A stretch of DNA of 34,983 bases from a virus (lineage: Duplodnaviria; Caudoviricetes): positions 1 through 34,983 of the IMG/VR virus record IMGVR_UViG_3300021978_000003; one strand, written 5' to 3'. Made by a program: the position numbers and the translations under genes. The notes under the pieces are model-generated. The model did not search any database and had not been told where the DNA came from. It worked only from the letters and a program-made list of their open reading frames with translations. Of the stretch, positions 6,413 through 34,576 are shown one piece after another. Each line of letters begins with the position of its first letter. Within the stretch, counting starts at the first letter, position 1.

Positions 6413-8162
6413 AGTAGTAAGTAGTACAGGAATTATAGATATTGATTACCAAAGGGATGCCTTGCTTAGTCCCTTTTCACATGCAACATTGCAAGATAGA
6501 TACTTGGTTGAAGGCGAGTCACCTCAAGATGCTTTTGCAAGGACATCTATTACGTTTAGTGATAGTCCTGAGATGGCACAACGCATGTATGACTATGTAA
6601 GTAAGTTGTGGATGTCTTACTCTACACCTGTACTAGCTAACTCAAAGAAGAATACAAAGGGCTTGCCTATTAGTTGCTTCTTGAACTATGTAGATGATTC
6701 AATCAAAGGACTAAACGAACACACACTAGAGTCTAGATTACTTAGTGTAGCGGGAGGAGGGGTAGGAGCACACTGGTCTAGTGTCCGAGGGCATACGGAT
6801 AAGAGTCCCGGTGTTATACCCTTCCTCAAGACACAGGATGCAGATGTACTAGCATACCATCAAGGTACTACACGCAGAGGAGCGTATGCTGCTTACATGC
6901 ATGTGTCACATCCAGATATCCTTGAGTTCATAGGTATACGCAAGGCTACTGGTGGTGACATCAATCGTAAGGCATTAAATATTCATCATGGAGTAGTGAT
7001 TAGTCAGGAGTTTCTTGATGCTGTACGACATGATGCAGACTGGTATCTAGTTGCACCAGAAACAGGCAAGGTAGTAGACAAGACTGGTGCTAGAGATTTG
7101 TACAAGACACTACTGGTTACAAGACACCAGACAGGTGAGCCTTACATAATGAATGAAGATGTTGTACATGAGTTACAACCAATAGCACACAAAGAGAAAG
7201 GACTACGTGTGCATGGTAGTAATTTATGTGCAGAGATCATGCTTCCTACTACTCCTGAGCGAACAGCAGTGTGTTGTCTAAGCTCACTTAATTTAGAAAA
7301 GTATGACGATTGGAAAGATACTAATATTGTTGCTGATCTAACACGCTTCTTAGACAATGTATTGGAATACTTTATTACTACTAGTGATACAAAGGACTAC
7401 TGGAGAGCTATTAATAGTGCAACCAAAGAGAGGTCAATAGGTATAGGAGCTATGGGTTATCATGCATTGCTTCAGAAGCGAGGTATTCCTTTTGAGTCAG
7501 CCTTAGCTATCAGTGTTAACAGGCGTATATTCAAACAGATAAAGGAGCAAGCACATGAAGCGTCAATCAAATTGGCCGTTGAACGTGGTACACCCAACGA
7601 CATTCAAGGAACAAGTGATACTGAACGTAGGAATGTTCATCTTCTTGCTATTGCTCCTAACGCTAGTTCCAGTATTCTTGTTGATACGAGTCCTAGCATT
7701 GAGCCTTGGAAAGCTAATGCATTCTTACAAAAGACTGCTAGTGGTTCCTTTCTGGTCAAGAATAGATACCTTCATAAAGAAATAGCAGAGTACTATCCGG
7801 GTAAAGTAGAAGAAACATGGCAATCTATAGTTATCCACAATGGATCTGTACAACACCTGGTGGAGCTACCTGAATGGACAAGGGATGTATTTAAAACAGC
7901 TATTGAAATCAATCAGAACTGGGTTGTACAACATGCTGTGGATCGTCAAGACTATGTATGTCAAAGTCAGAGTGTTAACTTGTTCTTTCCTCCTGAAGTA
8001 GAGTGGGAATATCTACACAAGGTACACTGGAAAGGAATGACTGAGCTTAAGTCACTGTACTATCTTAGAACTGAAGCACTCAGTAGAGCAGAGTCAGTGG
8101 GTGTACAGATTGAGCGTAATGTAATCCCAATCGATGATGAATGTCTAGCATGTGAGGGCTAA
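6402..8162 (+). CDS. nrdA: Ribonucleotide reductase class I alpha subunit, no ATP cone
   Basis: STPVLAN, ISCF, SNLCAEI, APNASSS, SLYYLR and C-terminal CLACEG. Confidence 0.96.
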   Translation: METKVVSSTGIIDIDYQRDALLSPFSHATLQDRYLVEGESPQDAFARTSITFSDSPEMAQRMYDYVSKLWMSYSTPVLANSKKNTKGLPISCFLNYVDDSIKGLNEHTLESRLLSVAGGGVGAHWSSVRGHTDKSPGVIPFLKTQDADVLAYHQGTTRRGAYAAYMHVSHPDILEFIGIRKATGGDINRKALNIHHGVVISQEFLDAVRHDADWYLVAPETGKVVDKTGARDLYKTLLVTRHQTGEPYIMNEDVVHELQPIAHKEKGLRVHGSNLCAEIMLPTTPERTAVCCLSSLNLEKYDDWKDTNIVADLTRFLDNVLEYFITTSDTKDYWRAINSATKERSIGIGAMGYHALLQKRGIPFESALAISVNRRIFKQIKEQAHEASIKLAVERGTPNDIQGTSDTERRNVHLLAIAPNASSSILVDTSPSIEPWKANAFLQKTASGSFLVKNRYLHKEIAEYYPGKVEETWQSIVIHNGSVQHLVELPEWTRDVFKTAIEINQNWVVQHAVDRQDYVCQSQSVNLFFPPEVEWEYLHKVHWKGMTELKSLYYLRTEALSRAESVGVQIERNVIPIDDECLACEG

Positions 8163-31396: not shown

Positions 31397-31492
31397 ATGT
31401 GGATAGATGCTTTTGTGGTTGAACAATTGCTTGGTGTAAGCTTTGTAATAGCAATTCTCGTATGGGGAGCAGTAATGAGTAAATACAAGTGA
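31397..31492 (+). CDS. 31-aa single-TM peptide between terS and terL (not in ORF track)
   Basis: MWIDAFVVEQLLGVSFVIAILVWGAVMSKYK; GTGA overlap with terL; no clear SD. Confidence 0.4.
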   Translation: MWIDAFVVEQLLGVSFVIAILVWGAVMSKYK

Positions 31493-33180
31493 ATAAACGT
31501 GAACTAAGAACTTTAATTAATGACTTTAGGGAGTACTTAAAGTATGTATGGTTAGGAATTAACTTACCTCCTCCTACTCCTCTTCAGTTAGATATGGCAA
31601 AGACGCTTATGACAGGGGATAAGCGACTCTTAATGGAAGCGTTTCGAGGTATAGGTAAGACATACATCACAGGAGCCTATGTAACGTGGAGACTATTAAG
31701 GAATCCCAATGAGAAAGTAGTAATTGTTAGTCAAAGTGGTGCACACAGTGAAGCTATTGCTCAGTTTATACGTAGGCTTATCTTTGATTTACCTGTTCTT
31801 GAACACTTAATCCCTGAACAGGATATGCGTAATAGTGTTAAGTCTTTTGATGTGAGTGGTTGTGAAGTAACTGTACAACCTAGTGTGAAGTCATTAGGGA
31901 TTACTAGCCAGTTACAGGGCAATAGAGCTAGTATATTGATTAGTGATGATGTAGAAGGCTTACAGAATAGCGCAACTGAGTGGATGCGTACCAAGCTATT
32001 AGCAACTGTAGCTGAATATGATGCTATTTTACAGACAAATATAGACGCTCAGATCATTATATTAGGTACTCCTCAGAGTGGAGAAAGTATCTACAATAAA
32101 ATGAGGGATAAAGGGTTCAGAACGATTGTATATCCAGCTAGGTATCCTGAAGACATTGAGATATATCAGGGTACTCTTGCTCCTCATATAGCAGATCCAC
32201 TACTTTCACACAAGGTACAAGTAAATGACTGCACTGATTCAAGGTTTACAGATGAAGACTTGGTGGAACGAGAAGCTAGTATTGGTAGAAGTTGGTTTAG
32301 GCTCCAGTATCAACTGGATACCACACTTAGCGATAGTGACAGATTTCCTCTTAAAACGAGTGACTTTATAGTCCATGATTTAGATATTAATAAAGCTCCA
32401 GTAGGAATAACATGGGGAGGTCGTAAAGAGCTTGCATGTGATGACTTACCCAATATAGGCTTTACAGGTGATCACTTCTATCGTGCTAGTCACATAGACT
32501 CTGAATACACTGGCTATCAAAGTGTAATTATGAGTATTGACCCTAGTGGTAGAGGTAAAGATGAAACTGGCTACTCAGTTATCAAGCAATTGCATGGAAT
32601 GGTCTATATTAGTGAATGTGATGGGTTTCATGGTGGATACACGCCTGAAAACTTAATGCACCTTGCACAAATAGCTAAAAAGCATAAAGCTCAACTCATA
32701 GTGATTGAAAGTAACTTTGGGGATGGGATGTTTGGTGAATTACTGAAACCTATTCTTAAAAGTGTGTATCCAGTTAGTATTGAAGAAGTACGAGCTAGTA
32801 AACAGAAAGAACTTAGAATTATTGACATTGTGGAGCCATTGCTTAACCAACACAAGCTAGTTATTGACTATACACTTGTAAAGAGAGATATAAATAGAGG
32901 ACTCAGTGATCATAAGGTGATTGCTTACTCTTTGATACATCAGATAACGCATATAACTAGAGATAGAGGTTCTTTGTTTCACGATGATAAGCTGGATTCA
33001 TTAGCATTAGCACTAGGCTGGATAGTAGAAACAGTAGGTGTGTCAGCAGAAGAGGCACTAGAACGCTATCGAGAAGACCTGTTAGATGAAGATTTAGAGC
33101 GATTTATGCATGGTGTTGGTGTAAATGGGCGTGTAAAAGGTAAGAATTACCTCGATTCCTTTGAACATATCAACCGTTGA
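31489..33180 (+). CDS. Terminase large subunit (T7 gp19-like)
   Basis: AFRGIGKT, ISDDVE, LGTPQ, IDPSGRGKDETG, ESNFGDGMF, HDDKLD. Confidence 0.97.
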   Translation: MNKRELRTLINDFREYLKYVWLGINLPPPTPLQLDMAKTLMTGDKRLLMEAFRGIGKTYITGAYVTWRLLRNPNEKVVIVSQSGAHSEAIAQFIRRLIFDLPVLEHLIPEQDMRNSVKSFDVSGCEVTVQPSVKSLGITSQLQGNRASILISDDVEGLQNSATEWMRTKLLATVAEYDAILQTNIDAQIIILGTPQSGESIYNKMRDKGFRTIVYPARYPEDIEIYQGTLAPHIADPLLSHKVQVNDCTDSRFTDEDLVEREASIGRSWFRLQYQLDTTLSDSDRFPLKTSDFIVHDLDINKAPVGITWGGRKELACDDLPNIGFTGDHFYRASHIDSEYTGYQSVIMSIDPSGRGKDETGYSVIKQLHGMVYISECDGFHGGYTPENLMHLAQIAKKHKAQLIVIESNFGDGMFGELLKPILKSVYPVSIEEVRASKQKELRIIDIVEPLLNQHKLVIDYTLVKRDINRGLSDHKVIAYSLIHQITHITRDRGSLFHDDKLDSLALALGWIVETVGVSAEEALERYREDLLDEDLERFMHGVGVNGRVKGKNYLDSFEHINR

Positions 33181-33256: not shown

Positions 33257-33277
33257 TTATCCACAGAGTTATCCACA
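33257..33277 (+). promoter_or_regulatory. Two tandem perfect DnaA boxes
   Basis: TTATCCACA at 33257-33265 and 33269-33277. Confidence 0.75.
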
Positions 33278-33280
33278 GAT

Positions 33281-33307
33281 TAAAAGTAAAAGGACATTCT
33301 AATGTAG
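33281..33307 (+). promoter_or_regulatory. Putative phage RNA polymerase promoter (copy 2; T7 phiOR-like position)
   Basis: TAAAAGTAAAAGGACATTCTAATGTAG, near-identical to 9385-9411. Confidence 0.7.
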
Positions 33308-33800
33308 AACTTAATTGCTCTGCAACCGATTCGCGATAGCGCGACCTCCCGACGATGTGAAGTCCTAAGCACTCAGGCTCATGTGAACTAGTTTAAACAC
33401 TAGTGGGTGGTACGAATACCTAAGATGTAACTAGATGCCGAACAACTCTATTGCTTTAGATAGATTCTGGATGTACACACACATAGTGAATGTACACAGT
33501 TGAGGGAGGACAGAAACTATTGATTATAAGTAGTAGTAGTAGTAGTAGGTGTTGTACTAGTTTAGGTATTACGTCCCTCCCTCAAATGTAAAGAACCTAG
33601 TACTAGGCTATGTGAACACTTGTTGTTTACACCTGTTGTTAGATGTACACACTGTGTTGACATAAGTGGTGGCATCCTTTTGAGGTTAGGTATCCCCCAC
33701 AGTCTCCGTACCTAGTGTTAGGAGTGTGTCACCACTTATGTTTATACGTGTTGTTAACAGTATGTCTACTTATAAGTGAACACCTACTACTACTACTAAC
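33308..33800 (+). ncRNA. Candidate structured non-coding RNA or ssDNA structure at the right end
   Basis: No credible ORF; many hairpins and long-range complementary segments directly downstream of the putative phage promoter. Confidence 0.4.
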
Positions 33801-33937
33801 TAAGCCAGTAATATGGAGTGTTGTACATGTATGACATATGCGTCTATATGCGTCGAACTACGCTTAAAAATGGTATAAAAATGTCTGGGGGTATTATACA
33901 TACATACGTGCGCCATGCCCCCCATGCCCCTTCCACT

Positions 33938-33975
33938 TATAACCAAATGGCATATGCATATAACTAAAGTGCATA
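33938..33975. promoter_or_regulatory. Pair of LysR-type (T-N11-A) boxes, 21-bp period
   Basis: TATAACCAAATGGCATA and TATAACTAAAGTGCATA. Confidence 0.4.
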
Positions 33976-33982
33976 ACATTGT

Positions 33983-33998
33983 TGGCATGATTCTTGCA
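33983..33998 (+). promoter_or_regulatory. sigma54 -24/-12 element 1
   Basis: TGGCATG-ATTC-TTGCA versus consensus TGGCAYG-N4-TTGCW. Confidence 0.75.
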
Positions 33999-34018
33999 TG
34001 GGGTACACGCTCAATGGT

Positions 34019-34034
34019 TGGCATGATGTTTGCA
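34019..34034 (+). promoter_or_regulatory. sigma54 -24/-12 element 2
   Basis: TGGCATG-ATGT-TTGCA. Confidence 0.75.
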
Positions 34035-34063
34035 TACATTACAAATAGTTAATGTTTGAGCGT

Positions 34064-34080
34064 TGCACCAAAATAGTGCA
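34064..34080. promoter_or_regulatory. NtrC-binding box 1
   Basis: TGCACCA-AAA-TAGTGCA versus consensus TGCACYA-N3-TRGTGCA. Confidence 0.75.
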
Positions 34081-34108
34081 GACACAAATTTTTGACCTAT
34101 TGCCTACT

Positions 34109-34146
34109 TGTTGCTTAAACACAACAACTGTTGCTTAAACGCAACA
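34109..34146. repeat. Tandem pair of 18-bp palindromes TGTTG-N8-CAACA, 20-bp period
   Basis: TGTTGCTTAAACACAACA and TGTTGCTTAAACGCAACA. Confidence 0.8.
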
Positions 34147-34171
34147 CTCCTAACAATACGCGAGTTAAAAG

Positions 34172-34192
34172 TTATCCACAGCCTGTGGACAG
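34172..34192. promoter_or_regulatory. Inverted DnaA box pair
   Basis: TTATCCACA (34172-34180) and degenerate reverse box TGTGGACAG (34184-34192). Confidence 0.65.
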
Positions 34193-34201
34193 TTTCAAGC
34201 T

Positions 34202-34218
34202 TGCACCACTTTGGTGCA
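34202..34218. promoter_or_regulatory. NtrC-binding box 2 (perfect dyad)
   Basis: TGCACCA-CTT-TGGTGCA. Confidence 0.8.
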
Positions 34219-34300
34219 TCCATTGTGCGCTCCTCTCGTTCGATCTAAGCCACGATAGCCCGAAACCCTCACATTGCCCCACCTTTTCTGTACTCACAGC

Positions 34301-34309
34301 TTTTCCACA
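34301..34309 (+). promoter_or_regulatory. DnaA box
   Basis: TTTTCCACA fits TTWTNCACA. Confidence 0.5.
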
Positions 34310-34327
34310 GACTTACTAACATATACA

Positions 34328-34343
34328 TGGCACGGTTGTTGCT
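34328..34343 (+). promoter_or_regulatory. sigma54 -24/-12 element 3 (perfect consensus)
   Basis: TGGCACG-GTTG-TTGCT. Confidence 0.8.
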
Positions 34344-34397
34344 ACGTAACGTACTCTTATTTATACGCGGGAAATTCTCAGAGCTAACAACACGGGT

Positions 34398-34478
34398 AAA
34401 TTAATTTAATTCTTTAATATCAAGCACTTGTGTACACTGTGAAGCTAACTTGTTGATTCTTAAGGATTAAATTAATTT
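34398..34478. promoter_or_regulatory. Two inverted IHF sites within an AT-rich imperfect inverted repeat
   Basis: TATCAAGCACTTG (34418-34430, +) and AATCAACAAGTTA (34446-34458, -) both match WATCAANNNNTTR; outer arms AAATTAATTTAAT/ATTAAATTAATTT. Confidence 0.7.
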
Positions 34479-34488
34479 CATTTAGGGG

Positions 34489-34517
34489 TTGACATAGTCC
34501 AGCCATTAATTCATTAT
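34489..34517 (+). promoter_or_regulatory. sigma70-type early promoter
   Basis: TTGACA-17 bp-CATTAT with an AT-rich upstream tract; ORFs follow. Confidence 0.7.
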
Positions 34518-34576
34518 GTGTTTCAAGCCAGACGCAACCAGCAACTGGCATTCACTTAAAAGTAGAAAGGTCGATC

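Follow-up and report, generated by a model that had tools for sequence, protein, structure and literature searches.

The non-coding DNA at the predicted left end of a T7-type phage genome, represented by the IMG/VR virus record IMGVR_UViG_3300021978_000003 (a single viral contig of 34,983 bases, analyzed here at its full length and referred to as the window), carries an array of matches to binding sites for host regulatory proteins. Specifically, about 14 such matches, among them sites for sigma54 (RpoN), NtrC, DnaA, and IHF, are found in the 680 gene-free bases that separate the predicted left end from the first early gene, and this array is a real and selected feature of the DNA. The explanation favored here, at a probability of roughly 0.45 and as judged from sequence, is that the array would act in cis on the DNA that enters the cell first, recruiting host proteins that set up or tune the first transcription and that may also gate entry of the genome.

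Every motif listed in a preliminary description of this region is present at the position given for it, and the shuffle comparison which that description proposed, run here against 2000 dinucleotide shuffles of positions 33930-34520 and with consensus strings taken for all site classes from general knowledge rather than from a motif database, places motif density above that of shuffled sequence. The three sigma54 elements (33983, 34019, 34328) compare with a shuffle mean of 0.10, and none of the shuffles contains as many. Likewise, no shuffle reaches the count of two NtrC boxes (34064, 34202), a class without any match in positions 1-33180, and the two IHF sites (34418, 34446) and two DnaA boxes (34172, 34301) are equaled in number by 4 and 33 of the 2000 shuffles, respectively. 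The palindromes at 34109 and 34129 (18 base pairs, bp) and at 34036 (20 bp) are similarly matched by 0 of 2000 shuffles, a circular comparison in that the patterns were drawn from the same sequence. Spacing between the -24 and -12 portions is correct in the sigma54 elements of the window, and an activator box is found 80-150 bp upstream only of the element at 34328, not of those at 33983 and 34019.

Some of the labels originally attached to the array hold in part. The proposed DnaA pair consists of one perfect box (34172) and a second (34184) that carries two mismatches and fails both the strict and the one-mismatch forms of the consensus. What had been called LysR-type boxes is a genuine duplication of a 17-mer unique to 33938 and 33959; the generic LysR rule (T-N11-A), however, gives 6242 matches in the window and a stricter LysR pattern gives none in the region. 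The predicted sigma70 promoter at 34489 is the best of the region, with a score of 10/12, but promoter-like sites as a class occur there at chance frequency (6 observed versus 6.1 expected). For the two 18-bp palindromes, a tentative HexR/RpiR-like label is suggested by the Pseudomonas putida HexR motif, which has similar arms and a spacer one base longer than that of the phage palindromes (10.1101/2022.01.11.475908).

The second comparison proposed in the preliminary description, conservation in related phages, likewise finds the same site classes in the leaders (the non-coding DNA following the genome end) of relatives. Fourteen representative leaders, totaling 9,022 bp and amounting to about nine lineages given that six share long alignable stretches, contain 21 DnaA matches in 8 loci, 16 IHF matches in 10, 11 Fur matches in 6, 3 parS matches in 3, 24 HexR-like matches in 9, 9 sigma54 matches in 3, and 3 NtrC matches in 2, and none of 300 shuffles reaches the count of any of these seven classes. 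Across the same 14 leaders, NrdR, CRP, FNR, LexA, ArgR, MatP, and SlmA have no match, and CtrA is not enriched (4 matches versus 2.18 expected, a count reached by 50 of the 300 shuffles). The seven classes are found in leaders that share no alignable DNA, and in 31 distant T7-like control loci (46,460 bp), which probably have other hosts, they produce five matches in total. Of the 31 distant T7-like loci (L040-L083, first 1500 bp past the terminase stop codon), 11 contained CtrA-type sites, 17 matches in all, in a raw count made without shuffles.

Neighbors that lie close together on the terminase tree differ sharply in the sites that they carry, and the repertoire swaps between relatives. The leader of locus L010, for example, holds three HexR-like sites and one sigma54 element, while that of its sister L011 holds a parS site, five sigma54 elements distributed over both strands, an NtrC box, and four DnaA boxes. 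Scanning metagenomes with an anchor sequence returned 33 matches, six of them with a terminase match, and yielded one new leader (L116) as well as two more L011-like loci with no terminase in the locus; the corresponding scan of IMG/VR returned nine matches and no new contig. When compared with cultured phage DNA, the non-coding region gave only matches of 30-37 bp to the DnaA pair, in 13 records; the sigma54 pair returned 20 matches, all weak, and those to Vibrio T5-like phages proved useful.

The placement of these sites bears on the competing explanations. Fur, parS, HexR-like, sigma54, and NtrC sites number 50 to the left of the end signal, in the 9,022 bp of leader, versus one to the right of it, in 8,162 bp of equally non-coding DNA from 13 loci; from the terminase stop codon to the end signal, the right side holds nine DnaA and three IHF matches. 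This asymmetry favors a role in cis over that of a decoy, with the qualification that the right side is constrained by a hairpin of its own. With respect to promoters, IHF matches occur in 10 of the 15 loci examined, and in seven of these 10 the match begins 90-133 bp ahead of a sigma70 start site; in the other three no downstream promoter exceeds the threshold. The IHF sites of the window, which precede the predicted sigma70 start site by approximately 106 and 78 bp, fail the tighter pattern that was used for the 15-locus test. In 6 of 15 loci, all members of one subclade and the window not among them, a HexR-like palindrome overlaps the start site of an upstream sigma70 promoter, and in all three of the leaders that bear sigma54 elements a forward element precedes the first gene, at +406 to +525. 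A scan for promoters combined with palindromes, run without a control, returned 58 loci, seven of which belong to the clade of the window.

Closer to the end itself, parS is found at +45 to +64 in three leaders, and the end signal is flanked on either side by runs of DnaA boxes with a period of 11-12 bp, close to IHF matches. DnaA boxes situated just past the terminase stop codon, as in the window, are also seen in L005, L007, L010, L011, and L038. An otherwise unlike contig present in several runs shares with the window only positions 33257-33298, 42 bases that include the DnaA pair, and has an IHF-type site before them; it probably represents another member of the clade.

The left end is predicted to lie at approximately 33894-33906 because of homology to the end signals of T7 and LUZ100, and on this prediction the array would fill the terminal repeat and the leader. 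The right end of T7 contains two A-runs, with the cut 17 nucleotides after the start of the second and a C-run 25 nucleotides inside the repeat; LUZ100 has the same 42-nucleotide span with an annotated cut 12 nucleotides later than in T7, and the window presents the T7-type layout from 33877, at T7 spacing after the terminase gene. The signal is found in 24 of 32 clade loci (27 of 32 with a looser pattern, the other five being short) versus 3 of 44 distant T7-like loci. The terminal repeat may end on its right at a T-run motif that 13 of 15 leaders have at +172 to +261; for comparison, the repeat measures 160 bp in T7 and 244 bp in LUZ100. On this reading the predicted repeat would hold the 17-mers, two sigma54 elements, the 20-bp palindrome, and one NtrC box, and the remaining sites would lie in the leader present at the left end only. 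Read depth in run X8 (43.9 for a contig covering 33868-34046, flanks at 17.4 and 15.6) was dropped as evidence for the repeat, being a contig-level value confounded by strains. Variant strains in runs X5, X8, and X6 depart from the window sequence at 33897-33898, the predicted left end, as if terminal repeats swap as units.

Before the end signal the window contains a long hairpin that the preliminary description had missed (Table 1). The region from 33520 to 33810 has a folding z of -6.7, and 18 of the 19 clade loci share the loop motif, which sits on unrelated stems and precedes the end signal by 52-198 bp; single hairpin folds beat at least 95 of 100 shuffles in 9 of 12 loci, and an alignment-based fold finds 0 pairs, the stems failing to align. 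Two weak microRNA matches in Rfam, far below the cut-off, were rejected. The hairpin is likely an end-processing signal. In T7 the terminal repeat is duplicated by way of a hairpin, to which that of the clade may correspond, or it may be a structured RNA. Contigs from the RNA of one sample extend over 33428-34007, hairpin included, and, giving neither strand nor start, are not used as evidence.

Table 1. Positions of array sites and neighboring features in the window.
Feature	Position	Strand	Remark
T7-type terminase large subunit, last late gene	31489..33180	+	PHROG 38, E 4e-101; 72-74% identity to Lau218
Two perfect DnaA boxes 3 bp apart	33257..33277	+	Right-end side, just past terminase gene; outside the span first described
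Long hairpin with conserved loop	33655..33741		Inside larger inverted repeat 33531-33802
T7-type end signal: two A-runs, then C-run 42-43 nucleotides past second	33865..33930	+	Layout shared with T7 and LUZ100 termini
Predicted terminal repeat, about 190-200 bp	33894..34090		Right edge placed by conserved T-run
Duplicated 17-mer, copies 21 bp apart	33938..33975		Only two copies in window; LysR-type label unverified
Sigma54 -24/-12 element 1	33983..33997	+	Consensus match
Sigma54 -24/-12 element 2	34019..34033	+	Consensus match
20-bp spaced palindrome	34036..34055		Single copy in window; elsewhere only in near-identical L005 and one unrelated control locus
NtrC-type box, one mismatch	34064..34080		Order sigma54-sigma54-NtrC-T-run also in L011
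Two 18-bp palindromes, HexR/RpiR-like (tentative label)	34109..34146		Arms resemble published HexR motif
Perfect DnaA box and inverted two-mismatch box 3 bp away	34172..34192		Consensus match for first box only
Perfect NtrC-type box	34202..34218		126 bp before sigma54 element 3
DnaA box	34301..34309	+	Consensus match
Sigma54 element 3, perfect, facing early genes	34328..34342	+	Consensus match; candidate real promoter
Two inverted IHF sites (34418 +, 34446 -)	34418..34458		Within 26-bp inverted repeat
Sigma70-type early promoter, 10/12	34489..34517	+	Best-scoring in region
First early open reading frame, 39 codons	34577..34699	+	No family match

That the array belongs to the phage is indicated by independent assemblies. 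Contigs of runs X2, X5, X8, and X16 link the terminase gene to the end signal or continue through the array, and the IMG/VR contig L005, whose terminase is 98% identical, carries the same array; the region is phage DNA joined to the terminase gene and not a misassembled host fragment, the outcome that the preliminary description had named as fatal to its proposal. In X5 and X8 the stretch from approximately 33898 to 34016 is replaced by other DNA which, as read by eye, again carries a sigma54-type element. Three spacer bases of the NtrC box at 34202 are changed in X2 and X5; the change amounts to an inversion of a palindrome and so says little about selection.

By gene content the window is assigned to a Lauvirus-like T7-type phage of the Autographiviridae. 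Its genes lie on one strand in T7 order and encode a primase/helicase, DNA polymerase, resolvase, exonuclease, ribonucleotide reductase, portal, scaffold, capsid, tail, and small and large terminase subunits; the T7-type terminase, portal, capsid, tail, primase/helicase, and polymerase that mark the family are all present, arranged as in T7. Lauvirus Lau218 is the closest named relative by terminase (Table 1), every other listed phage record being at most 48% identical, and the Lauvirus-like relatives form one clade on the terminase tree with support of 100/100. The public runs that best match the phage are hydrothermal-vent metagenomes. A search for the host by way of terminase genes in genome contigs recovered relatives of only 37-48% identity, none of them from the Lauvirus-like clade, and did not identify a host; SUP05 gammaproteobacteria are the predicted host of Lau218 (PMC5224470), which need not apply to the phage of the window.

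The record spans the primase start to 400 bases inside the early genes and therefore lacks a portion of the early region, including the RNA polymerase that is present in Lau218. Consistent with this, a single-subunit phage RNA polymerase is not among the 37 open reading frames of the window that were scanned, that part of the genome lying outside the record. The Lau218 gene (L001:5455-7934) is encoded on the other strand and runs toward the early genes; two of the three records viewed show it split. No Pfam domain of a transcription factor or repressor was detected in 63 early open reading frames scanned of 91 listed, the RNA-polymerase region lying outside the scan. Within that same scope, a phage-made repressor was rejected as the binder of the palindromes.

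Under the explanation favored here, host proteins already present in the cell would bind the leader before any phage protein is made. IHF would assist the sigma70 promoter at 34489, and NtrC bound at 34202 together with the sigma54 element at 34328 would constitute a second, nitrogen-responsive route into the early genes. The additional tandem sites (DnaA, HexR-like, the parS and Fur sites of relatives, and the upstream sigma54 elements) would be auxiliary, keeping the leader occupied, looped, or clear of silencing proteins, and for this reason could be interchanged between relatives. T7-type genomes are pulled into the cell by host RNA polymerase, as established for T7, so that control of the early promoter would also set the timing of genome entry. 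In favor of such a role in cis stand the enrichment in the window and the 14 leaders, the left/right asymmetry, the spacing of IHF, the HexR-like palindrome over the start site, the forward sigma54 elements, and the lack of a transcription-factor domain among the early genes scanned; a tested precedent is the control of phage promoters by host CtrA from a site-dense intergenic region (PMC9437464). Of the functions considered in the preliminary description, the coupling of host state to early transcription is the best supported (IHF spacing, a start-site operator in one subclade, and an NtrC box that precedes a forward sigma54 element by 126 bp), whereas its extension to a lysis or dormancy decision finds no support, an integrase being found in 0 of 5 related records, only one of which is rated at least 90% complete.

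Several observations weigh against this explanation. Firstly, no operator overlaps the sigma70 promoter of the window, and most sites lie 150-550 bp upstream of it. Two of the three sigma54 elements of the window are upstream of any NtrC box, L011 has its five elements on both strands, and the single sigma54 element of L010 is accompanied by no NtrC match, all of which is unlike working promoters. Neither parS sites nor runs of four DnaA boxes belong to an ordinary promoter; DnaA boxes are also present right of the end (the nine in 8,162 bp), and those in the terminal repeats of Berlinviruses, described below, are separated from the first promoter-like site by approximately 400 bp or more. Additionally, the leaders reduce to about nine lineages, the Fur, parS, and HexR-like patterns were chosen after the leaders had been viewed, and 3 of the 16 IHF matches are variant DnaA boxes. 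L013 lacks all seven site classes, and Lau218 has just one Fur box. Lastly, strain variants damage the DnaA box at 34301 (X5, X16), the DnaA box at 34172, and the NtrC box at 34064, and in comparison with L005 one of 12 substitutions falls in sites that make up 196 of 470 bases, evidence that is too thin given that six of the substitutions form one cluster and the 12 amount to about seven events. The L013 leader carries five strong sigma70-type promoters in tandem.

Comparable sites are found at the ends of other phages. The Berlinviruses P483 (NC_028822; L270), A7 (L269), and nasanit (L451:1545-1710, read by eye) have five, four, and five perfect DnaA boxes, respectively, inside a terminal repeat homologous to that of T7, while T7 itself (NC_001604) has none of the tested host sites. 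The preliminary statement that T7-like ends are without such arrays is consequently true of T7 and untrue of these three Berlinviruses. In the T5-like vibriophage VF16, the non-coding part of the predicted terminal repeat holds Fur, sigma54, LexA, and DnaA matches in two clusters (L391:4350-4700 and 6650-6970), one of which combines all four, and L392 is similar. More broadly, tandem sigma54 pairs occur in an estimated 1500 or so IMG/VR stretches versus about 140 for one scrambled pattern, and positions of the pairs outside the fixed pattern still follow the RpoN consensus. Such clusters lie inside long open reading frames in 15 of 92 cases versus 66 of 79 controls and use both strands in 30 of 92 cases versus none of the controls; DnaA accompanies them in 11 of 92 versus 2 of 79 and IHF in 14 versus 3, the controls being mostly coding DNA. 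That sigma54 pairs stand near terminase genes is suggestive only, a terminase being the largest neighbor in 17 of 68 cases versus at least 6 of 57 (p 0.06). Genes of PHROG 1392 or 1617 repeatedly flank the tandem pairs (L146, L154, L156, L201, L204, L206, L212). In LUZ100, two sites resembling NrdR boxes, again by a consensus from general knowledge, lie between the terminal repeat and promoter P1 (L087:295-345); the main text of the LUZ100 paper makes no mention of NrdR (PMC10134795).

Of the rival explanations, a physical coat is rather unlikely, yet well suited to certain of the sites: tight host binders would load on the first-entering DNA as a ratchet, tether, or pause during entry, or as a shield of the end against nucleases and end sensors, and leave promoters unaffected. 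The sigma54 pairs in tandem and on both strands, their excess over the scrambled pattern, the parS sites near the end of three leaders, the DnaA boxes within Berlinvirus repeats, and the mixed sites of the VF16 repeat all agree with it, and a similar role has been proposed for the DnaA boxes of T5 (10.1101/866236). A coat was also among the functions first proposed, and it would best explain the tandem, two-strand, and parS sites. A coat would have no need, however, for fixed spacing of IHF or operators to promoters, T7 itself has none of these sites, the proximity of sigma54 pairs to terminase genes stays at the suggestive level noted above, and the absence of CRP, FNR, LexA, ArgR, MatP, and SlmA sites from all 14 leaders implies that the choice of binder is not arbitrary. 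Improbable, in turn, is the decoy that was also among the functions first proposed, whereby replicated copies would titrate DnaA, Fur, HexR, NtrC, and sigma54 holoenzyme, and in this way redirect, in trans, the replication of the host and its metabolism of carbon, nitrogen, and iron. Each site is present in multiple copies, the factors are regulators of metabolism or replication, and sites in the terminal repeat are doubled per genome; yet a sponge acting in trans needs no fixed side, and the proposal is weakened by the count of 50 left versus 1 right, by spacing linked to promoters, by the inability of a single entering copy to titrate, and by the presence in the phage of its own nucleases and ribonucleotide reductase.

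An origin or positioning element of host type, at which DnaA and IHF (together with ParB on parS) would start early replication, help to join or process ends, or place the genome, with the other sites forming a separate layer, is likewise of low probability. An origin of the bacterial oriC kind would combine a DnaA array with an IHF site and an unwinding element; the window contains DnaA and IHF matches, and the periodic DnaA runs that flank the end signal, the nearby IHF sites, and the three parS-bearing leaders fit this role. Primase/helicase and DNA polymerase are nevertheless encoded by the phage, 6 of 14 leaders have no DnaA box, and the sigma54, NtrC, Fur, and HexR-like sites are left unexplained. 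Chance matches, misassembly, or a recently captured host fragment would account for the weak labels (LysR, the DnaA box at 34184, the sigma70 count), and this is very improbable in light of the shuffle tests in the window and leaders, the contigs of four other runs and L005 that connect the terminase gene to the end signal or array, and the recurrence of the same classes in non-alignable leaders when 31 T7-like controls are nearly empty. Coat, decoy, and origin are not mutually exclusive, either with one another or with action in cis on early transcription. A broader proposal, that unrelated lytic phages have converged on a swappable panel of host-regulator sites serving as a protein-free, host-tuned checkpoint that senses nitrogen, carbon, iron, and replication state and gates entry, appears unlikely at present.

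Among systems already described, what was found in print consists of single-factor precedents. The left terminal repeat of T5 carries paired DnaA boxes in its injection-stop region, their role being proposed only (10.1101/866236). As in the window (33257/33269, 34172/34184), these boxes are paired 3 bp apart and lie in non-coding, early-entering terminal-repeat DNA of a lytic phage; T5, however, belongs to the siphoviruses and enters its host in two steps, and its eight boxes are set within two pairs of long inverted repeats that have a 52-bp spacer, whereas the window has four strict boxes near the end, outside such repeats, as well as mixed site classes that vary between relatives and start about 45 bp from the predicted end. 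Entry of T5 in two steps requires A1 and A2, and families of this type were not detected among the open reading frames scanned. Phages of alphaproteobacteria have intergenic regions dense in CtrA sites, for which binding and regulation of phage promoters have been shown and the term 'lytic deferment' is used (PMC9437464). These share with the window a non-coding stretch dense in host-regulator sites, but involve one regulator and, in the abstract, no link to the genome end, while the window clade involves several regulators and no enrichment of CtrA. An additional study treats the early-injected region, in the portion consulted, only with respect to restriction sites (PMC12455610).

Comparison with the left end of T7 (terminal repeat, short repeats, and promoters A1-A3) reveals the same end signal and the same succession of terminase, end, non-coding leader, host promoter, and early genes, differing in that T7 has none of the tested host sites and the three Berlinviruses have DnaA boxes only. 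The glnAp2 promoter exemplifies the enhancer-dependent sigma54 type, which the perfect NtrC box and perfect forward sigma54 element of the window, 126 bp apart, resemble; unlike that type, the window has extra sigma54 elements upstream of the enhancer, its relatives have them on both strands, and IHF lies downstream of the element rather than between enhancer and promoter. The lambda pL and Mu Pe promoters are IHF-assisted early promoters of temperate phages that encode a repressor. With these the window clade shares an IHF match approximately 80-130 bp before an early sigma70 start site, and differs in that no integrase was found in the five related records. The open literature searched, with subscription papers and supplements outside, yielded no account of DnaA boxes in the repeats of Berlinviruses, or of a T7-type end at which the sites form a mixed and exchangeable array. 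New here are the left/right asymmetry, the contrast between T7 and the Berlinviruses, and the way in which members of one clade exchange entire sets of sites.

The non-coding leader of T7-type phages is usually viewed as a spacer that bears promoters; in the clade described here it is a selected and exchangeable set of sites for host proteins. The contrast between T7, with no boxes, and Berlinviruses, with four to five DnaA boxes, can be tested in laboratory E. coli and also offers a route to the idea proposed for the DnaA boxes of T5. The site set may, moreover, point to the regulator inventory of the host. If the explanation favored here is true, these phages would exploit host regulators before making any protein of their own, which would bear upon the drive and timing of DNA entry, upon host range, and upon the infection of nutrient-limited marine bacteria.

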